Assembly: GCF_029227855.1 (NCBI RefSeq)
Contig: NZ_CP074356.1
Strand: one strand, 5' to 3'
Length of the DNA: 64,000 nt
Source of the DNA: Escherichia coli
GTDB taxonomy: Bacteria > Pseudomonadota > Gammaproteobacteria > Enterobacterales > Enterobacteriaceae
In this document: positions 2,694 to 47,471 of the stretch, piece by piece
Layout of the letters: every line of letters starts with the position of its first letter
Position numbering within the stretch: position 1 is the first letter of the stretch
The notes under the pieces: generated by a model
What the model saw: the letters and a program-made list of their open reading frames with translations, nothing else
Told to the model about the DNA's origin: nothing
Databases searched by the model: none
Made by a program: the position numbers and the translations under genes

Positions 2694-3769
2694 GCGCCCT
2701 CCCCGGCGGCAATCGCCAACGCCCGCTGCCAGCCTTGTAGATAGTTAGGGCTAAAGAAGGCAATGGTGTTTTTATCCACCGACGCCAACTGGCGCTGCGC
2801 TTCACGCACAATATCCTCGTTGAGATCGTCGGTAGTAAACAGCACCGGCAAATGCTGTTCCGTCATATCCTGCCAGAACGGATTTTCCCGGTTAAGCACA
2901 CAAGGAATGCCCGCCTGAATCAGTAAGCAAAGCGTACCAATGCCCTGCTGGCGGGCAAAAATAAAGTAACCAAGATCGCACTGACGAAGTAGCGCCAGAT
3001 AGGCGTCAAATTCCAGTTTTTCGCTCAAAATTTGCAGATTTTCTTCGCTGAATAACTCCAGCCCCGCCTGACGAACTTCCTCAATGTACGCTTCGTTATT
3101 AGGCGGATATCCCATCGGCACCACCACTTTTACCGTATCGCCAAATTGCTGATGAACGGCGCACAAGGCAGCAATATGGTCATTGCTGCGGTCACCGGAG
3201 TTCCCCACCAGAATGGTCATTTTCCCTTCACGTTGCCGATCGTTCGCCATCGTATTGAGAGAAGGGTCCATCCGCGTCGGGAAGTACAGCAGTTCGCCCC
3301 GCACCTTTGGATGCGTTTTGGCAAAAAAGCTCAAATCGCCGCGGGTGGCAAATACACAGCCGACTCGCTTTTGCGCCAGGCGACGTAGTGGGTAAAAAAG
3401 CTTATATCTCAAGCCACTGGAAAGCTCATACAGGTCTGCCCCCCAGATATGCCAGAAAAACTGGCTGGGCTTAATGCCACCACTCAGCAGAGCCAGCCAC
3501 AGTGTGGGATTGAACTGACCGTGGAAGAAAAAACGCTGCTGACGGTTAGCTTTTGCTTTCGCGATGACCGCTTCCGCCAGCGATTTTTTCCCAGGGAAAA
3601 ATTGCACAGAAAGCGCCGGACAGCTATCACTTAAGCCGTCGTCCTTGCCAACAACCATAAACTCGCGCGCGTGCTCGCTCGTCGCAGCCAGCGCGTCATT
3701 GAAAAACCGCAAAACGGTTCGGTTATGGTGAGGGATATCCGATCCCAGTACGTGAATCAGTACAGTCAT
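2690..3769 (-). CDS. wecF: TDP-Fuc4NAc:lipid II 4-alpha-fucosyltransferase
   Basis: 359-aa ORF recognised as WecF/RffT; overlaps both neighbours by 4 nt. Confidence 0.92.
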
Positions 3770-5016
3770 GCCCGCCTACGCCAGAGTAAAAACACGCCAC
3801 AACAAAGAGAAAAATAGACGATATAAGTTGCCATATATGCCTGCGCCGCGCCCAGTGCACCATGCGCAGGGATTAGCCAGTGGGCAAATACCATCAATAA
3901 AGTGAACTGGCTGATTTCCGCCAGAATATAAAACCGCAATGACGCTTTGGCGATCACCAGATAACCAAAGACATAAGCGCCCACTTTTAACACATCACCC
4001 ACTAACTGCCAGGCAAAGAGATCGCGCATAGCGGTAAATTTATTCGACAACAGCAGCCAGATAGCAAAATCACGCAGCAGCCAGACGGTAAAACTCGCCG
4101 CCGCCACTGCCGGTAAGACGAATTTCAGCGATTTAACCACTTCCCGGGTGATATCGCGCTTTTCCGTTAGCCGCGACAACGTGGGCAGCAAATATACGCT
4201 GAACGATGCCGTAATAAATTGCAGGTAGGCATCGGAAATACTGCTCACCCCTTGCCAGATCCCCACTTCATCCCAGCTATACTGCGCCGCGAGCAGTTTA
4301 CGCATCATGATGTAAGCAACAGGCAAGGTCACCGACGTAATCAACGCCATGAGCGTAAATTTGCTCAACTGCCCTGCCAGACCGTTATCCCAGCTGGGTT
4401 TCAAATAGCTTAACGGGATGACACCACGTTTGATCAACATGATGGCGGCAGGAATTACCACCAGCGCGGGAATCAGCGCCAGACCCAGCAACGCCCCTTC
4501 ATAACCGCCCAAACGGTAACTGACGTAGTACGCGAGAACGCCAATCAAGCTGCCGACAATCAGCGATAACGCATTACCTGCGGCATCGCGAAAGCCTTTC
4601 ATCAGCGCCAGTAACAGGTTGCCCCAGGCGATCCCCATTTGCACCAGCGCCACTAAACGCACCAGCCCCTGATAGTCGGTATTACCAAACAATCCCTGGC
4701 TGATTGGCGCAGCTGCCAGCACAAAAACCAGCGCCATCAGCGTAGAGAAACCAAGTACCATCGCTGATGAAGTGCCGACCACGCGGCGCAGCTGTTGCGG
4801 ATTATCATGGTACTGGGCAACGTATTTGGTTACACCGTTAAAGATGCCAGCTCCGGCAAGCACGCCGAGCACGGTAATCAACTGGCGGAAATTTGCCGCC
4901 AGCCCAAGCCCCGCCGGACCAAATGACACAGCCAGCAACTTACCGACCAGTAACCCGGCACCAATCTTGACCAGTGTACTGGCCGCCGTCCACAAGGACG
5001 CTTTTGCCAACGACAT
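3766..5016 (-). CDS. wzxE: Lipid III flippase (ECA)
   Basis: 416-aa polytopic membrane ORF recognised as WzxE. Confidence 0.92.
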
Positions 5017-39792: not shown

Positions 39793-39921
39793 GACCGCGC
39801 ATTTTTTCAGCAAAAGCCCCGTTAATGTGCCATAAAACAAGCAATTTGCCGTTTTTGCAACCGTAATCACACTTCCTGGTGGCATACTAAGGAGGAATAA
39901 AAAGAAAAAGGAAGATTAGTA

Positions 39922-40614
39922 ATGCCTTTAAGCGCACAACAGTTAGCTGCACAGAAAAACCTTTCGTATGTTCTGGCTGAGAAGCTGGCGCAACGCATCT
40001 TAAAAGGTGAATATGAACCCGGCACCATTTTGCCTGGTGAGATTGAGCTGGGCGAGCAATTTGGAGTGAGTCGTACAGCGGTACGCGAAGCGGTCAAAAC
40101 GTTAACGGCAAAAGGGATGGTTTTACCGCGACCGCGAATTGGTACCCGGGTCATGCCACAATCAAACTGGAATTTTCTTGATCAGGAATTGCTTACCTGG
40201 TGGATGACAGAAGAGAACTTTCATCAGGTCATCGATCACTTTCTGGTTATGCGTATCTGTCTGGAGCCGCAAGCTTGCCTACTGGCTGCAACGGTTGGCA
40301 CCGCGGAACAGAAGGCGCATCTCAATACGTTAATGGCCGAAATGGCGGCATTAAAAGAGAACTTTCGCCGTGAACGCTGGATCGAAGTCGATATGGCCTG
40401 GCATGAGCATATCTATGAAATGAGCGCCAATCCGTTTTTGACCTCATTCGCCTCGCTATTCCATTCGGTTTATCACACTTACTTCACGTCAATTACCAGC
40501 GACACAGTGATAAAGCTGGATCTGCACCAGGCGATTGTCGATGCGATTGTCCAAAGCGATGGCGACGCGGCATTTAAAGCTTGTCAGGCGCTGCTACGCT
40601 CACCTGATAAGTGA
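39922..40614 (+). CDS. yieP: GntR/FadR-family transcriptional regulator
   Basis: 230-aa ORF MPLSAQQLAAQKNLSYVLAEKLAQRILKGEYEPGTILPGEIELGEQFGVSRTAVREAVKTL with an N-terminal GntR wHTH and FadR-like C-terminal domain. Confidence 0.9.
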   Translation: MPLSAQQLAAQKNLSYVLAEKLAQRILKGEYEPGTILPGEIELGEQFGVSRTAVREAVKTLTAKGMVLPRPRIGTRVMPQSNWNFLDQELLTWWMTEENFHQVIDHFLVMRICLEPQACLLAATVGTAEQKAHLNTLMAEMAALKENFRRERWIEVDMAWHEHIYEMSANPFLTSFASLFHSVYHTYFTSITSDTVIKLDLHQAIVDAIVQSDGDAAFKACQALLRSPDK

Positions 40615-40636
40615 CAACCCGATAACAGGACATTGA

Positions 40637-42064
40637 ATGAGCGATAAAAAGAAGCGCAGTATGGCGGGTTTGCCGTGGATCGCGGCGATGGCCTTCTTCA
40701 TGCAGGCACTTGATGCCACTATTCTGAATACCGCCTTACCCGCAATCGCTCATAGCCTTAATCGTTCTCCTCTCGCGATGCAATCAGCCATCATCAGTTA
40801 TACGCTGACGGTGGCGATGCTTATTCCGGTAAGCGGATGGCTAGCCGATCGCTTCGGTACGCGTCGCATTTTTACCCTTGCCGTGAGTCTGTTCACATTG
40901 GGTTCTCTGGCCTGCGCACTTTCTAATTCGCTACCACAGCTGGTTGTCTTCCGGGTTATTCAGGGGATAGGCGGCGCAATGATGATGCCTGTTGCTCGGC
41001 TGGCCTTACTGCGCGCTTATCCTCGTAATGAACTTCTTCCAGTATTGAATTTTGTCGCCATGCCGGGTCTGGTGGGGCCAATTTTAGGCCCCGTTCTTGG
41101 CGGCGTGCTGGTCACCTGGGCAACCTGGCACTGGATATTTTTAATCAATATCCCCATAGGTATTGCGGGCCTTCTTTACGCGCGCAAACATATGCCCAAT
41201 TTCACCACCGCACGACGCAGATTCGATATCACTGGCTTTTTGCTGTTTGGCCTCAGCCTTGTTCTCTTCTCAAGCGGAATAGAGCTATTCGGGGAAAGGA
41301 TTGTCGCCAGCTGGATTGCCTTGACGGTAATTGTCACCAGCATCGGGTTACTGCTTCTCTATATTCTCCATGCGCGACACACGCCAAACCCATTAATTTC
41401 ATTAGATTTATTTAAAACCCGCACTTTCTCGATCGGTATCGTAGGCAATATTGCAACCCGTCTGGGGACCGGTTGTGTACCGTTCCTTATGCCATTGATG
41501 TTACAGGTAGGATTTGGTTATCAGGCGTTTATTGCCGGCTGTATGATGGCACCGACAGCGTTAGGTTCCATTATTGCAAAATCGATGGTTACCCAAGTCT
41601 TACGTCGTCTGGGCTATCGCCATACGTTAGTGGGGATCACGGTGATTATTGGGCTAATGATCGCTCAGTTCTCTTTGCAATCACCGGCAATGGCGATATG
41701 GATGCTGATCTTGCCGTTGTTTATATTAGGGATGGCTATGTCGACGCAATTTACCGCGATGAATACCATCACACTTGCCGATCTGACCGATGACAACGCC
41801 AGCAGCGGTAACAGTGTTCTGGCGGTCACGCAGCAACTGTCGATTAGTTTAGGCGTTGCTGTAAGTGCGGCCGTCCTTCGCGTTTATGAAGGGATGGAAG
41901 GCACAACGACTGTCGAACAATTCCACTATACGTTTATCACGATGGGCATTATTACTGTTGCTTCAGCAGCAATGTTCATGCTTCTGAAAACAACCGATGG
42001 TAATAATTTGATCAAAAGACAGCGTAAATCTAAGCCGAACCGCGTTCCATCAGAATCGGAGTAA
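40637..42064 (+). CDS. hsrA: MFS transporter (DHA2-like, 14-TM class)
   Basis: 475-aa polytopic [41 protein letters not shown]; identified as HsrA/YieO by position and sequence. Confidence 0.88.
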
Positions 42065-43022
42065 GTTGTAATCGTTGTTGCTGAAGGGTCGGCTGGGTTA
42101 TCCGATGGATGAGTACATCAATCGCCAGCTCCCCCAGTTCATCTTTCGGTTGGTGGATAGTGGTTAATGGTGGCGTCATAAAGCTTGCCAGTTCGATATC
42201 GTCATAGCCAATCACCGCGATATCCTGCGGAACCTGTAACTCTGCCTGATATAACGCCTGGTAAACGCCAACAGCCATAGCGTCATTTCCGGTAAAGACG
42301 GCCTGAGGACGCAGCGGATGTGATAACAGTTGGCGCATGGCGTCAAACCCGCCGTTAAATTCAAAATCACCAGTGACTTCATAGCCATCAGGAATGTTGA
42401 GACCCGCACGTTTCATCGCCGCCCGATAACCTTCCAACCGCAGGCGCGCCGGAGTTTTATCCAGCGGACCGGTAATACAGGCGATACGGGTATGACCTTT
42501 ATCGATCAGATATTGCGTTGCTAAGTCTCCGCCCAGCAACGAGTTATCCTGAATAAGATCGCTGTCGCCATCGAACGGAGCCCAGTCCATCATCACAGTA
42601 GGCACTGTCGGATAACGTTGCATGATTTCACGCGAAGGTTGATGCGTTTCGGTGCACAGTAACAGCAAGCCATCAACGCGTTTTTGCATCAGCGTTTCCA
42701 GATTGCGATTCATCCGCTGTTCATCGCCTTCGGTATTGCAAAGGACGAGACTATAACCGCGTTCGAAGCAGCTGCGTTCAACGCCACGCACCAGTTCTGA
42801 ATAGAAAGGATTGGTACTGGCAGTGATCAACATGCCAATGGTATGTGTTTGATTGAGTTTGAGGCTACGCGCCAGGGCTGATGGCGCGTAATTGAGTTCT
42901 TTAATCGCCGCTTCAACTTTGGCGGTAATCGCTTCACTGACGAAGCGATCTTTATTGATAACGTGAGAAACTGTTGAGGTAGAAACGCCCGCCAGGCGGG
43001 CAACATCTTTCATTGTAGCCAA
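42030..43022 (-). CDS. rbsR: Ribose operon repressor (LacI family)
   Basis: ORF (M)[42 protein letters not shown] (330 codons); first codon is TTG at 43020-43022, alternative ATG at 43011-43013; 3' end overlaps hsrA by 35 nt. Confidence 0.9.
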
Positions 43023-43025
43023 GCG

Positions 43026-43955
43026 TCACCTCTGCCTGTCTAAAAATGCGTCGATCTCTTCACGCCACGGTACGGAAGGTTGTGCGCCTTTACGTGTTAC
43101 GGCAATCGCAGCGGCAGCATGGGCAAACCGAATCGCCTCTGGCAATGGTTTTTCTTCCAGCAACGCCGTGATTAACGCGCCGTTAAAGGTATCTCCGGCA
43201 GCAATGGTATCGACAGCCTGCACCCGGAATCCAGGAACGCGCTGACCTTCACCATTCACGCTAGCCCATACACCACGACTTCCTAAAGTAATCAGTACAG
43301 TACGGATACCTTTTTCATGCAGTACCTGCGCCGCCTTCGCTGCATCTTCATCATTTTCAACACGAATACCGGTGAGCTTTTCTGCTTCCGTTTCGTTTGG
43401 CGTAATAATGTCCACCAGCGCCAGCAGTTCGTCAGGAAGTTCGCGAGCCGGAGCCGGGTTAAGCGCAACGATAGTCTTATTTTGATGGGCGATTTTCGCC
43501 GCTGCCATCACACTTTCGAGTGGTGATTCCAGCTGCATTAATAATGCTGACGCGTTGGCAATACGCTCACGTTGCGCTTCCACCAGCGCCGGGGAAAGGG
43601 CAGCATTAGCGCCGGCATGAATACCGATGACATTCTCACCTTCGCCATTAACAAAAATCAGCGCCACACCTGTTGATTCGCCTTTGATCACGCTGACCGG
43701 AGTAATATCAATGTTATCAGTGGCGAGCTGCTGGCGAACGCTCTCACCAATGCTGTCATCACCCGTACAGGCAATAAACGCGATATTCGCACCGCTACGC
43801 CCAGCAGCCACAGCCTGATTCGCGCCTTTGCCGCCAAATGCAACCTGATAGTGGTTACCGGTTACGGTTTCGCCTGGAGTAGGAAAAGATTGAAGATTAA
43901 GAATGTGGTCAGCATTAATGCTGCCAAGAACAACGAGGCTGCCTGCGTTTTGCAT
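43026..43955 (-). CDS. rbsK: Ribokinase
   Basis: Translation from ATG 43953-43955: MQNAGSLVVLGSINADHILNLQSFPTPGETVTGNHYQVAFGGKGANQAVAAG (309 aa). Confidence 0.95.
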   Translation of the reverse strand: MQNAGSLVVLGSINADHILNLQSFPTPGETVTGNHYQVAFGGKGANQAVAAGRSGANIAFIACTGDDSIGESVRQQLATDNIDITPVSVIKGESTGVALIFVNGEGENVIGIHAGANAALSPALVEAQRERIANASALLMQLESPLESVMAAAKIAHQNKTIVALNPAPARELPDELLALVDIITPNETEAEKLTGIRVENDEDAAKAAQVLHEKGIRTVLITLGSRGVWASVNGEGQRVPGFRVQAVDTIAAGDTFNGALITALLEEKPLPEAIRFAHAAAAIAVTRKGAQPSVPWREEIDAFLDRQR

Positions 43956-44080
43956 ATTCGGGATGTCCATAAAATGCGCCACCGTGTTAGGGTGGCGCGT
44001 GCCCTGCTTTTCTTTATATTACACGTTCATCTGTCGATGACGTATTTATGTCACCATCAGGTCATACAACCTGATTAAAA

Positions 44081-44971
44081 CTACTGCTTAACAACCAGTT
44101 TCAGATCAACCGGATACTTAGCCTGAACTTTCTCGCCTTTCAGCACTTTATCTGCGGTTTCGACGCCTTTCGCGCCAATCTGATCGGGTAGCTGAGCGAT
44201 AGTCGCTGCTAGTTTGCCATCATTCACCGCTTTTTCGCCATCCGGTGTACCGTCAAATCCGACGACCATCACATCCGATTTACCGGCAGTTTGCAGTGCG
44301 CGCAGCGCGCCCAGCGCCATTTCATCATTCTGCGCGAATACAGCCTGAACATCCGGATGAGCGGTCAACAGGTTCTGCATTACGTTCAAACCTTTAGTGC
44401 GATCAAAATCTGCTGGCTGGCTGGCAAGAACATTAAACTTGTGAGCAGCAACGGCCTGCTGGAAGCCTTCGCCACGTTCACGGGCTGCGGATGTACCAGC
44501 AATGCCTTGCAGCTCGATAACTTTGGCACCTTCACCCGCTTTCTTCGCGATGTAATCACCGGCGATTTTGCCACCCAGTACGTTATCAGAAGCAATGTGG
44601 CTCACCACTTCACCTTTCGTTGCCTGGCGGTCAAGAGTGATAACCGGGATGTTCGCCTGGTTAGCCATCTTCACAGCATTACCTACTGCGTCGGAGTCGG
44701 TCGGGTTAATCAGCAGAATTTTGGTGCCGCGAACGGTTAAGTCCTGCACGTTCGCCAGCTCTTTCGCCGGGTTGTTCTGGGAGTCCAGCACCACCAGGTT
44801 ATAGCCAAGCTTATCCGCCTCTTTCTGCGCGCCATCTTTCAGCGATACAAAGAACGGGTTGTTAAGCGTGGAGACCACCAGCGCGATGGTGTCTTTTGCC
44901 ATCGCATTCGCACTGACGGTGGCGCTTAGCGCAACAGCGGAAACCAGGGTAGCCAGTTTTTTCATGTTCAT
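44081..44971 (-). CDS. rbsB: Ribose ABC transporter periplasmic binding protein
   Basis: Translation from ATG 44969-44971: [41 protein letters not shown], with a signal peptide (296 aa). Confidence 0.95.
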
Positions 44972-44995
44972 ATTCAAGATGTCCTGTAGTCGTTA

Positions 44996-45961
44996 TTACT
45001 GCTTTTTGTTGTCTACCAGCACCGCCAGCAAAATCACCACCGCTTTGACGATCATCTGGTAATAGGAGGAAACACCTAACAAATTCAATCCATTATTAAG
45101 GAAGCCAAGAATTAATGCGCCGATCAACGTCCCAACAATGCGACCTTTTCCGCCCGCCAGACTCGTACCGCCCAGAACCACCGCAGCAATAGCATCCAGC
45201 TCATAGCCAGTCCCCGCCGTGGGTTGTGCGGAGGAGAGACGCGCCACTTCAATGATCCCGGCCAGCGATGCCAGCAGACCACAAAGAGAATAGACGATGA
45301 TTTTGATTTTATTGACGTTGATACCAGAAAGACGCGTTGCCGCTTCGTTGCCGCCCAGCGCGTAGATGTAACGCCCCAGACGCGTGTGATGCAGCATGTA
45401 CCAGGCCGCGAGGAAGACAATCCCCATGATCCAGACTGGCGTCGGTACGCCCAGCGGACGACCAATACCAAACCAGCCAAACAGATCGGCGTTCTCAGTA
45501 AAGCCGGTATTCACTGGGCTACCGTTGGTATAAACCATGGTCACGCCGCGCAGTAAAAGCATCATAACCAGCGTAGCGATAAACGCCTGAACGCGACCTT
45601 TCGCTACAATCACCCCGGTTACCGCACCAATTGCGGCACCTAACGCGAGAGCGGCAGCGACAGCCACCAGCGCATTGACTTCAATGCCGACGATAGATGC
45701 AGCAACTGCGCCGGTTAGCGCCAACAGAGAACCTACAGACAAGTCGATGCCCGACGTCAGGATCACCAGCGTCATCCCGACCGCCATAATGGCGTTCACC
45801 GAGGTTTGCTGGAGAATATTGAATAAGTTATTGATGGTGAAAAAGTTCGGGCTTAACGTCGAGACAATCGCGATCAGCACCAGCAGAGCGATAAGCGATT
45901 TCTGCTCCATCAGCCACGCTTTCGTGAAATAACGGCGACCAGAGACAGTCTGGGTTGTCAT
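44996..45961 (-). CDS. rbsC: Ribose ABC transporter permease
   Basis: 321-aa polytopic ORF MTTQTVSGRRYFTKAWLMEQKSLIALLVLIAIVSTL. Confidence 0.95.
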   Translation of the reverse strand: MTTQTVSGRRYFTKAWLMEQKSLIALLVLIAIVSTLSPNFFTINNLFNILQQTSVNAIMAVGMTLVILTSGIDLSVGSLLALTGAVAASIVGIEVNALVAVAAALALGAAIGAVTGVIVAKGRVQAFIATLVMMLLLRGVTMVYTNGSPVNTGFTENADLFGWFGIGRPLGVPTPVWIMGIVFLAAWYMLHHTRLGRYIYALGGNEAATRLSGINVNKIKIIVYSLCGLLASLAGIIEVARLSSAQPTAGTGYELDAIAAVVLGGTSLAGGKGRIVGTLIGALILGFLNNGLNLLGVSSYYQMIVKAVVILLAVLVDNKKQ

Positions 45962-45965
45962 TTTT

Positions 45966-47471
45966 TTACTCCTGATTCACGCGATTAAGCTTGCCCACAG
46001 CGGCAGCCATTAACACTTCCTGGGTGGCCTGCTCACGAGTAAATTCCCCGCTGAGATGCCCTTCATGCATGACGATGATGCGATCGCTCATGCCTAATAC
46101 TTCTGGCATCTCCGATGACACCAGAATGATGCTCAAGCCATCGGCTTTGAACTGGTTAATCAGTTGATAGATCTCTTTTTTCGCGCCGACATCTACGCCA
46201 CGGGTAGGTTCATCAAGGATCAACACTTTGGGGCGTGTCATCAGACCGCGGGCAATCGCCACTTTTTGCTGATTGCCACCGGAAAGCAGACCAATTGCCT
46301 GTTCCATCGACGGTGTTTTCACATTAAACAGACGAATGAAATCACTCACAGCCTGCTGTTCATCGGCATGCTTCAAACTGCCGCCAGCGCGGCTGAAGTA
46401 GCGCAGCGCTGTCAGCGACATGTTCTCTTTTACTGACATGCCCAACACTAAACCGTCACGTTTACGGTCTTCGGAGATATACACAATGCCGCTTGCCAGG
46501 CCATCCTGCGGTGAACGGGTAACGACTTCATGCCCATCCAGGGTGACGTAACCGCTGGTGCGCGGTAGTGCGCCGTAGAGCACTTTCATCAGTTCGGTAC
46601 GACCTGCGCCCATCAAACCAGAGACGCCAAGAATTTCGCCTTTGCGTAAAGTAAAAGAGACATCGTTAACGCCAGGTCCGCAGAGATTATCGACTTTCAG
46701 GCGGATATCTCCCGGCGCTTTGTCCAGGTGTGGATATTGATCTTCCAGCTTGCGGCCCACCATCATCTCAATCAGCGAATCTTCGGTCAGTGATGCCACT
46801 TCGCGCTCAGCAATAAATTGCCCGTCACGAAAAACGGTAACGTCATCGCAAATCTCGAAGATTTCTTTCATGCGGTGGGAGATATAGACAATACCGCGGC
46901 CTTGCGATTTCAGCTCGCGTATGACGCGGAACAGGGATTCGGTTTCGGTATCGGTCAGCGCATCGGTCGGTTCATCCATAATGATGACTTTCGACTCAAA
47001 GCTCAGCACTTTGGCGATTTCAACCATTTGCTGGTCACCGATGGAAAGATCGCCCACCAGCTTGTCGCTTTTAAAGCGCAGGTTAAGTTTAGCCAGCAAT
47101 TTATCCGCTTCGGCATACATGGTTTTCCAGTCAATTTTGCCAAAGCGATTAACAAACTCACGACCGAGGAAAATGTTTTCGGCAATGGTCAACTGCGGGA
47201 TCAGGTTCAGTTCCTGATGGATAATCCCAATCCCGGCTTCCTGGGAAGATTTCGGCCCGGTAAATGTCGTTTCTTTCCCCAGCCATAAAAGCGTGCCGGC
47301 ATCGCGAGCATAGATACCAGTAAGCACTTTCATCATGGTGGATTTACCCGCGCCGTTTTCGCCCACCAGCGCCATCACGCGGCCCGGATAGACATTTAAC
47401 GCTGCGCCCGAGAGGGCTTTTACGCCCGGGAAGGCTTTATCGATGCCTTTAAGCTGAAGTAATGCTTCCAT
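45966..47471 (-). CDS. rbsA: Ribose ABC transporter ATP-binding protein (duplicated ABC domains)
   Basis: 501-aa [53 protein letters not shown] with Walker A and a second ABC domain. Confidence 0.95.

Follow-up and report, generated by a model that had tools for sequence, protein, structure and literature searches.

Conserved 35-nt overlap of the convergent hsrA and rbsR coding sequences in Escherichia coli: a probable ordinary tail-to-tail gene pair

The hsrA and rbsR genes of Escherichia coli face each other and share the 3′ ends of their coding sequences, which raises the question of whether this junction connects the expression of the ribose regulon with that of an MFS exporter or whether it is simply one case of a common gene arrangement. 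The locus was analysed within a stretch of 64,000 nucleotides of E. coli DNA (contig NZ_CP074356.1), hereafter referred to as the window, whose coordinates are used below except where K-12 positions are indicated. The initial annotation described an overlap of 35 nt between the two genes, and the gene names, stop codons and limits it gave were confirmed by the sequence, by the list of open reading frames and by the annotation of K-12 (Table 1). Each gene contributes to the shared segment 10 sense codons, its stop codon and 2 nt of the adjoining codon, and the encoded residues are K466-E475 in HsrA and T321-A330 in RbsR. The description of the segment as the last 11 codons of each gene is correct when the stop codon is counted. 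The stop codon of rbsR reads 'cta' on the plus strand, and the phase of the overlap is (123:132), with hsrA codon position 1 opposite rbsR position 1, position 2 opposite position 3, and position 3 opposite position 2.

Table 1. Location of the features of the hsrA/rbsR junction in the window.
Feature	Position	Strand	Description and basis
hsrA (yieO)	40637..42064	+	DHA2-type MFS transporter, 475 aa; ORF list, K-12 b3754, profiles
rbsR	42030..43022	-	LacI-family ribose operon repressor, 330 aa; ORF list, K-12 b3753, NF007743
Convergent CDS overlap, 35 nt	42030..42064	.	Sequence and ORF list; same in K-12
hsrA stop codon TAA	42062..42064	+	Antisense of RbsR Leu320-Thr321 (cTT Act)
rbsR stop codon TAG	42030..42032	-	Junction alignment, overlap classes
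HsrA C-terminal tail K466-E475	42032..42061	+	Antisense to RbsR T321-A330; beyond the NF007799 match
yieP	39922..40614	+	FadR/GntR-family regulator sharing an operon with hsrA, on its upstream side; ORF list, K-12 annotation, PMC11340327
C>G patch followed by published Rho termination region	42185..42326	+	PMC7815308, composition
Candidate Rho loading region of the rbsR transcript	41792..41909	-	Composition only; antisense to hsrA

Both hsrA and rbsR are real protein-coding genes, with orthologues of each in 80 species. RbsR matched the NCBIfam equivalog NF007743 over residues 1-330 of 330 with 697 bits, against a cutoff of 531. HsrA matched the DHA2/MdtD-like MFS model NF007799 of NCBIfam over residues 13-465 with 459 bits, as well as Pfam MFS_1 over residues 17-406, and its product carries the PGAP label 'mdtD'. 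Regarding operon structure, rbsR is the final gene of rbsDACBKR, and in the yieP-hsrA operon (PMC11340327) hsrA occupies the second place, yieP being the presumed source of its transcription.

The overlap itself is already known, both from the reference annotation and from a published list. The window aligns to K-12 without gaps and the sequence of the overlap is identical; accordingly, the MG1655 annotation contains the same 35-nt overlap, with rbsR at 3938227..3939219 (+) and hsrA at 3939185..3940612 (-). In addition, 'rbsR-hsrA' appears among the 165 convergent 'excludons' of MG1655 reported with ExcludonFinder (NAR 2025; PMC12288877, Table 1), where it was detected in 50% or more of the 58 RNA-seq samples of this strain. 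Convergent overlaps are a well described class, from which the hsrA/rbsR pair offers little new biology: 58 of them were counted in E. coli, their usual origin is a stop-codon mutation, (123:132) is the commonest phase (49%) for those of at least 5 nt, and CTAA, TTAA, CTAG and TTAG represent the recognised forms of the 4-nt overlap (PMC2174442). A literature search on cross-regulation between hsrA and rbsR gave nothing specific beyond the excludon list, a table of mutation hotspots and a note on yieP-hsrA synteny, and the papers retrieved for rbsDACBKR did not deal with this pair in their titles or abstracts. We consider it probable that the locus is an ordinary conserved tail-to-tail pair, lacking both a dedicated element and any demonstrated part in regulation.

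The distribution of the junction across genomes was then compared with what would be expected by chance. Of 5426 complete E. coli genomes, 5413 retain the junction, and hsrA and rbsR abut in all 80 Enterobacteriaceae species, the extremes being a gap of 3 nt and an overlap of 53 nt. The 35-nt overlap was found in 34 of 80 other species-level genomes, belonging to Escherichia, Salmonella, Citrobacter, Intestinirhabdus, Enterobacter and Leclercia, and a derived 53-nt form was found in a further 5 (Lelliottia, Huaxiibacter). When the classes were counted over the 80 species loci together with K-12, strain E2863 and the window, overlaps of 4 nt (n=25), 9 nt (n=6), 24 nt (n=1), 35 nt (n=37) and 53 nt (n=5) were observed, along with gaps of 3 nt (n=1) and 2 nt (n=8), so that the spacer never exceeded 3 nt; all lengths were taken to the first in-frame stop, as tblastn alignments can run through stops. 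In the phase of hsrA, the strand antisense to rbsR contains 24 stops per 330 codons, approximately one every 14 codons, and a run-on of 10 codons is therefore typical for hsrA. The overlap's length is thus unremarkable against chance, and its conservation is what goes beyond chance.

As to how the two transcripts end, the initial annotation stated that no terminator lies between the genes, and this was borne out: there is no intergenic room for one and none was predicted. A scan of 2.2 kb on both strands for the consensus of intrinsic terminators gave no candidate closer to the overlap than 380 nt. The scanned region contained 3 terminator-like sites, in comparison with 2.8 expected from shuffled sequences, and the nearest of them (41648-41669, plus strand) is inside hsrA. 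Folds of 201 nt were not significant on either strand (z values of -1.6 and -0.9), and a search of Rfam over 39800-45500 gave no match at E≤1. A bidirectional terminator or a programmed site of polymerase collision could nevertheless be hidden inside the coding sequences and end both transcripts near the overlap, given that bidirectional terminators and collision-driven termination have been reported between converging E. coli genes (bioRxiv 10.1101/2022.10.23.513370) and that, for about 20% of the genes involved in convergent overlaps in E. coli, a rho-independent terminator is located within the partner (PMC2174442). The minimum free energy fold even joins 41962-41974 to 42073-42085 across the overlap, but this 13-bp pairing was attributed to chance, and by eye the flanking repeat is unconserved in other genera. 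Besides the non-significant folds, neither strand has a hairpin followed by a T-tract near the junction, and the termination observed on the hsrA strand is sensitive to bicyclomycin. Published Term-seq data place no 3′ end within or close to the overlap, whichever the strand, and none assigned to hsrA or to antisense rbsR, the sole nearby 3′ end being internal to rbsR at K-12 3938325 (PMC7815308). Neither gene is mentioned in the supplementary data of Yan et al. 2018. These observations make a hidden site of this kind extremely improbable. Bidirectional intrinsic terminators and programmed collisions (Ju et al. 2019; Wang et al. 2022) do share with this locus the convergent geometry and the need of both transcripts for an end. 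The hsrA/rbsR pair differs from them in having no intergenic space, no stem-loop flanked by A and U tracts and no defined 3′ ends seen.

Rho-dependent termination of untranslated or antisense RNA was reportedly described by Peters et al. 2012. The hsrA RNA is untranslated beyond 42064, and Adams et al. 2021 found on this strand a bicyclomycin-sensitive Rho region at K-12 3938923(-) (PMC7815308, supplementary file 2), which coordinate mapping places at position 42326 of the window, 262 nt past the hsrA stop and inside antisense rbsR. The counts for this region were 102/32 in untreated cells and 164/143 with bicyclomycin (p=7.6e-6), a weak signal from a single experiment with low counts (near 100). 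In the patch that precedes it (42185-42300), the excess of C over G reaches +9 per 78 nt, a modest value at the 90th percentile of the window. The hsrA strand resembles the published cases of Rho termination of antisense RNA, 'antisense' regions outnumbering every other class there, in showing a bicyclomycin-sensitive drop in coverage about 260 nt past the stop, in antisense orientation and after a C>G patch; it differs from them in that only one strand of the pair has such evidence, and this is weak (score 2.78). On the rbsR strand, the candidate loading region lies 120-240 nt past the rbsR stop, with C minus G of +10 per 78 nt (93rd percentile). The tables of the same study, which report one position per 800-nt window on either side, list no 3′ end or Rho region on the rbsR strand beyond 3939219, the site inside rbsR at 3938387 being the dominant one.

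On the published bicyclomycin data, Rho terminates the hsrA mRNA, untranslated past its own stop, a few hundred nucleotides into rbsR, and base composition suggests that the rbsR mRNA may likewise be ended by Rho inside hsrA. The 3′ ends of the transcripts therefore overlap whenever both genes are on. The proposal of the initial annotation that transcription of each gene must enter the other holds: each mRNA has to span at least the last 35 nt of its partner, and both the excludon list and the Rho region agree with it.

The further suggestion that this arrangement lets the ribose regulon and hsrA affect each other, through transcriptional interference or antisense effects, was not supported. 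If the pair were a functional convergent excludon, the spacer-free arrangement would be kept for mutual repression of the ribose and yieP-hsrA operons, either by collision of RNA polymerases or by RNase III cleavage of the 3′ duplex. Such a reading could draw on the presence of rbsR-hsrA in the published MG1655 excludome, on the extension of the hsrA-strand transcript into antisense rbsR by some 260 nt or more, and on the higher synteny of excludon pairs in comparison with other neighbouring pairs (PMC12288877). There are also E. coli precedents such as mscL-arfA (PMC10070815), and the absence of a spacer from the junction in 80 of 80 species might reflect selection for coupling rather than tolerance. 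However, an overlap of coding sequences makes entry in the excludon list automatic, and the entry is no sign of regulation. The length and phase of the overlap drift freely among genera, which argues against a tuned element. Reads were low on both strands (102 and 72 per 800 nt), and transcription to the overlap is limited by an early Rho region of rbsR (K-12 3938387, score 3.77), with less of it arriving from the rbs side in LB (PMC7815308). Moreover, validation of double-stranded RNA with p19 is infeasible for convergent excludons according to the authors of ExcludonFinder (PMC12288877).

A regulatory function of the excludon type is thus considered unlikely at this locus. Convergent excludons (PMC12288877; mscL-arfA, PMC10070815) are similar to hsrA/rbsR in being opposite-strand neighbours with overlapping 3′ transcript ends. 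In hsrA/rbsR, however, the transcript overlap is forced by the overlap of the coding sequences and not by long 3′ UTRs or embedded terminators, and the likeness is one of transcript overlap alone, whereas the excludon concept is based on mutually exclusive expression and RNase III processing. For the ordinary tail-to-tail pair that we favour, any interference between hsrA and rbsR would probably be a minor side effect at the low expression observed.

To get insight into the origin of the 35-nt overlap, the junction classes were placed on the gene tree. Basal genera have a short junction, either a 4-nt stop-on-stop overlap of the TTAA type or a 2-nt gap; the short-overlap state is found in all of them, and the 53-nt class is nested inside the 35-nt class. 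The junction alignment revealed that the 4-nt and 35-nt classes differ in frame (3n+1 vs 3n+2) by one nucleotide, located immediately ahead of the rbsR stop. In the ancestral form, hsrA stopped at the TAA contained in a TTAA/CTAA tetramer; this TAA corresponds to positions 42031-42033 and is out of the hsrA frame in this lineage. From these alignments we infer that a frame change, after which hsrA no longer read its old stop, gave rise to the 35-nt overlap, the direction of the change being assigned by parsimony. In the lineages of Escherichia/Salmonella/Citrobacter and of Enterobacter/Leclercia, the one-nucleotide difference just upstream of the rbsR stop would have caused the old hsrA stop to be bypassed, adding 10 codons up to the next stop, and the extension of hsrA would run on the antisense of the conserved C-terminus of RbsR. 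The gene tree requires two independent frame changes, or one change and a reversion. A second loss of the stop, in Lelliottia, would have lengthened the overlap to 53 nt.

This history would make the junction a clean example of the birth of a convergent overlap, from a TTAA stop-on-stop arrangement through a one-nucleotide frame change to a 10-codon tail. It has no essential difference from the convergent overlaps generated when a stop codon is lost or bypassed (Rogozin et al. 2002; Lillo & Krakauer 2007, PMC2174442; Palleja et al. 2008, PMC2478687), with which it shares real genes on opposite strands joined at their 3′ ends, a 3′ extension after an out-of-frame stop, the (123:132) phase, a 4-nt ancestor of the TTAA type and conservation across genera. 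Its peculiarities within the class are that purifying selection is measurable on the added tail and that its history is unusually readable, with overlaps of 4, 9, 24, 35 and 53 nt and gaps of 2 and 3 nt occurring in one family.

Whether the added tail has any significance for HsrA was addressed through the conservation of the overlapped codons. The tail (residues 466-475) lies beyond the matches to NF007799 and MFS_1, the RbsR model reaching the last residue of its protein, and the 41 genomes with a junction between a 3-nt gap and a 24-nt overlap do not have it. In the tail, a motif K-P-x-x-[VA]-P-S-[EK]-x-E is conserved. The TAA that ends hsrA exists only when the RbsR leucine codon facing it is CTT or CTC, and among the 40 overlap-class genomes this codon was CTT in 38 and CTC in 2. 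The third-position entropy of rbsR four-fold sites in the 40 overlap-class species was 0.58 bits in the 11 overlapped codons in comparison with 1.26 bits elsewhere (Mann-Whitney p=7e-4), and none of 81 other 11-codon windows was equally low. On the other hand, the 41 species devoid of the long overlap showed no drop (1.20 vs 1.29, p=0.46). The test is based on only 9 informative sites and on related species, a limitation that these controls mitigate but do not remove. In statistical terms, this result shows the added HsrA tail to be translated and under weak constraint by purifying selection, and this constraint on the tail restricts in turn the synonymous sites of rbsR.

An overlap of this length could also arise as a by-product of ORF calling or from neutral read-through, the tail being unmade or meaningless. 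Its position outside both profile matches and its absence from about half of the genera would fit this explanation, as would the fact that frameshifts, by extending 3′ ends, are known to produce spurious convergent overlaps (PMC2478687). Nevertheless, there is no earlier in-frame stop in hsrA, so the ribosome must translate the tail; the position of the stop is kept in 42 of 42 frame-shifted sequences (the 40 overlap-class genomes, K-12 and E2863); the synonymous constraint on rbsR is confined to the region encoding the tail and to the species encoding it; and conservation of the overlap reaches far past 'very close species'. We therefore regard a spurious or meaningless tail as very improbable. 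A more ambitious proposal, in which the junction couples the two operons, with ribose-induced polymerases lowering the YieP-HsrA exporter or the reverse, and in which the tail motif has in addition gained a function of its own, is also given quite a low probability.

With hsrA/rbsR taken as an ordinary tail-to-tail pair whose added tail is weakly constrained, the locus illustrates how a new reading frame measurably restricts synonymous sites in the older gene. The shared segment also has a practical consequence for engineering. Changes to rbsR codons 320-330, whether edits, insertions or deletions, alter HsrA too, as seen in the natural ISEc52 insertion of strain 1162C, and deletions of the rbs operon can clip hsrA.

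The region at 42030-42064 is the E. coli chromosomal yieP-hsrA / rbsR-rbsK junction. The stops and open reading frames were confirmed in the window sequence, and the coordinates and gene names under which the initial annotation described a convergent hsrA/rbsR overlap are correct. Within each gene the shared stretch spans ten sense codons and the stop plus two bases of the adjacent codon; it is in phase (123:132) and encodes HsrA residues K466-E475 and RbsR residues T321-A330. RbsR matched the NCBIfam RbsR equivalog over its full length (1-330/330, 697 bits), and HsrA matched Pfam MFS_1 and a subfamily model for DHA2/MdtD-like MFS transporters; both reading frames are genuine genes.

Coding sequences at the hsrA/rbsR junction (window coordinates)
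Feature	Coordinates	Strand	Details
hsrA CDS	40637-42064	+	475 aa, stop TAA at 42062-42064
rbsR CDS	43022-42030	-	330 aa, stop TAG ('cta' on + strand) at 42030-42032
hsrA/rbsR CDS overlap	42030-42064	both	35 nt
rbsK	43026-43955		basis: K-12 mapping

The gene at 40637-42064, named hsrA in K-12, is labelled 'mdtD: multidrug transporter subunit MdtD' by PGAP in RefSeq E. coli genomes because its score narrowly passes the NF007799 subfamily cutoff (458.6 against 426 bits). This looks like a naming collision, since the mdtD of the mdtABCD operon is a separate locus. Regarding rbsR, its TTG start at 43022 (noted region 43020-43028), located 3 nt past the rbsK stop, is a weak start codon positioned so as to couple its translation to that of rbsK; codon 4 is an in-frame ATG.

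The overlap is already known, being annotated in the K-12 reference and published in an excludon list. In K-12 MG1655, rbsR (3938227..3939219, +) and hsrA (3939185..3940612, -) show the identical 35-nt overlap, and the alignment with the window (window = 3981249 - K-12) is gapless; its 17 mismatches over 2500 nt all fall outside the overlap. PGAP likewise annotates it in strain E2863, which matches the window exactly across 1.1 kb, and 5413 of the 5426 complete E. coli genomes searched contain the sequence of a 126-nt junction probe (identity of at least 99% in 4438). In addition, Sanmartin et al. (NAR 2025, PMC12288877) name 'rbsR-hsrA' among 165 MG1655 convergent excludons, their criterion being transcript overlap in 50% or more of 58 RNA-seq samples. 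Altogether, the overlap is real, conserved and correctly annotated, and belongs to a familiar class of convergent gene pairs; it is chiefly useful as a neat illustration of how such overlaps are born and of how two reading frames constrain each other.

A survey of hsrA loci in 80 species-level Enterobacteriaceae genomes, with both stops located in each, showed rbsR and hsrA tail-to-tail throughout and never more than 3 nt apart. Counting also K-12, E2863 and the window, the junctions comprised gaps of 3 nt (1 sequence) and 2 nt (8), and overlaps of 4 nt (25), 9 nt (6), 24 nt (1), 35 nt (37) and 53 nt (5). RbsR retains both its length (~330 aa) and a C-terminal ...QLTPxLxxRGS[AV], and HsrA is variable beyond a conserved core ending in ...KDGRNLIKERH(K). 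The 4-nt class has interlocked stops (TTAA, CTAA or TTAG), tetramers reported as the common convergent 4-nt overlap (Lillo & Krakauer, PMC2174442). In the 35-nt class, the distance from a conserved 'cacaaa' to the rbsR stop is 3n+1 bases instead of 3n+2, so that the old TAA (42031-42033 here) falls out of frame and hsrA continues across the antisense of the last ten RbsR codons until it meets the next stop, which is formed on the strand opposite RbsR Leu320-Thr321 (cTT Act). With 24 stops among the 330 codons of that antisense phase, roughly one in every 14, a 10-codon run-on is of the expected length. The overlap would be the product of a one-nucleotide frame change bypassing the hsrA stop. 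Convergent overlaps, of which 58 were counted in E. coli, usually originate through mutation of a stop codon, and (123:132) is the commonest phase among those of at least 5 nt (49%) (PMC2174442).

A neighbour-joining tree built on the conserved parts of HsrA and RbsR placed short forms in all basal genera (Buttiauxella, Atlantibacter, Siccibacter/Franconibacter, Kosakonia, Phytobacter) and the 35-nt form in two clades, Escherichia/Salmonella/Citrobacter/Intestinirhabdus and Enterobacter/Leclercia. This topology would require either two frame changes or one plus a reversion. The 53-nt form (loci L029, L030, L032, L036 and L041, from Huaxiibacter, Lelliottia and one Enterobacter MAG) is nested in the Enterobacter/Leclercia clade; its rbsR TAG is changed to TCG or TTG and RbsR gains 6 aa (…RGSVSAGGxL), a second, independent stop loss on rbsR instead of hsrA. 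One contig titled 'Chryseobacterium sp. 18061' (L035, CACSKA010000004.1) carries an enterobacterial hsrA/rbsR locus placed beside 'Citrobacter sp. 18056' on a very short branch, and its assembly is probably mislabelled or contaminated.

The HsrA family model extends only to residue 465 and the MFS_1 match to 406, which leaves residues 466-475 as a lineage-specific hydrophilic tail, presumably cytoplasmic from MFS topology. Because rbsR third positions face hsrA second positions, synonymous changes in rbsR always alter HsrA. In the 40 species with 35- or 53-nt overlaps, entropy at four-fold third positions of rbsR was 0.58 bits in the 11 overlapped codons (9 sites) vs 1.26 bits elsewhere (137 sites; one-sided Mann-Whitney p=7e-4), and 0 of 81 other 11-codon windows were as low. 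On the contrary, the 41 species without a long overlap showed no entropy drop at the same codons (1.20 vs 1.29 bits, p=0.46). The Leu codon supplying the hsrA stop was CTT in 38/40 species and CTC in 2/40, no other Leu codon yielding a stop, and the Thr codon facing the terminal Glu was ACT in 39/40. This entropy contrast, together with codon retention, suggests that the hsrA frame is under purifying selection in the overlap; the evidence is good but not conclusive, since the sites are few and the species related. Such constraint argues against a mis-assigned hsrA stop, whose correction, according to the initial annotation, could have removed the overlap.

The junction carries no dedicated element. 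A promoter/terminator consensus scan of 2.2 kb returned three terminator-like sites vs 2.8 expected from shuffles, none of them on the minus strand. Folding of 201 nt on the two strands gave z-scores of -1.6 and -0.9, and no Rfam match was found in 39800-45500 at E<=1. A conspicuous pairing of 41962-41974 with 42073-42085 in the predicted fold was discarded as, judged by eye, it is not conserved in other genera. The proposed lack of a terminator between the genes thus holds, as the spacer is absent and the scan finds no site within 380 nt of the overlap.

With no spacer, an intergenic terminator is impossible and each mRNA covers at least the last 35 nt of its partner; the mutual run-in of transcripts that had been put forward is supported by two published datasets (PMC12288877, PMC7815308). 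Mapped 3′ ends short of the overlap would have spoken against it, and Term-seq under three growth conditions (Adams et al. 2021, PMC7815308) assigned none to hsrA or to the strand antisense to rbsR, the only nearby end lying inside rbsR at 3938325 (+). DirectRNA-seq with and without bicyclomycin placed a Rho termination region, classed 'antisense rbsR', at 3938923 (-), with up/downstream counts of 102/32 untreated and 164/143 with bicyclomycin (Rho score 2.78, p=7.6e-6; PMC7815308). In window coordinates this is 42326 on the hsrA strand, lying 262 nt past the hsrA stop and directly after a C>G patch (42185-42300, 90th percentile of the window). This bicyclomycin-sensitive region shows, on low counts, that the hsrA transcript extends a few hundred nt into antisense rbsR and is then ended by Rho.

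On the rbs strand, a stronger Rho region is located in the 5′ part of rbsR at 3938387 (+) (score 3.77, p=1.4e-13, counts 173 to 72; PMC7815308); transcription from the rbs side is, in LB, already reduced by intragenic Rho termination before the overlap. The same table lists no Rho region downstream of the rbsR stop, where the sole hint of Rho action is a C>G patch 120-240 nt past the stop (41909-41792, 93rd percentile). We infer that the rbsR transcript is likewise ended by Rho inside antisense hsrA, so that Rho would set both ends within the partner gene, for hsrA on low counts.

A perfect 8-bp hairpin, ATCGCTTC-ACTGAC-GAAGCGAT, was observed at 42928-42949 in the rbsR 5′ coding region (helix-turn-helix codons). 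It scored as terminator-like on the plus strand, coincides with the rbsR sense-strand Term-seq 3′ end (K-12 3938325, window 42924, -) and lies just upstream of the Rho region at K-12 3938387 (window 42862, -). The proximity of these three features is suggestive of intragenic attenuation, or of polarity, between rbsK and the rbsR body. The small RNA RbsZ (K-12 b4804, 3937045-3937278), which originates from the 3′ end of rbsB, corresponds to 43971-44204 (-); Term-seq shows a very strong 3′ end where it stops, at 3937278 (PMC7815308), and it apparently has no Rfam family, as no match was found at E<=1.

It is quite improbable that the pair acts as a functional excludon, with the ribose regulon and the exporter gene under putative interference or antisense control via the junction. 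Literature searches on this pair returned no expression data. The one feature leaving room for selection on coupling is that the two genes adjoin without a spacer in all 80 species, but overlap length and phase drift freely among genera, which argues against a tuned regulatory element. Excludon status is automatic here because the coding sequences overlap, and the ExcludonFinder authors were unable to validate convergent excludons by p19-captured dsRNA (PMC12288877).

Some 60 complete E. coli genomes do not cover the 1.1-kb junction in full. In E. coli strain 1162C (L083, NZ_CP051659.1), an ISEc52 element (IS3 family; 3071-4321) lies inside the overlap, equivalent to window ~42062, and PGAP annotates both hsrA and rbsR as pseudogenes 'missing C-terminus'; a single insertion therefore strikes two genes. 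Finally, a compendium of laboratory-evolution mutations lists rbsD, rbsB and rbsR (13.1% each) and hsrA (11.9%) as hotspots (PMC6120903), and these co-hotspots (window ~42030-46000) are consistent with recurrent rbs-operon deletions reaching into hsrA.
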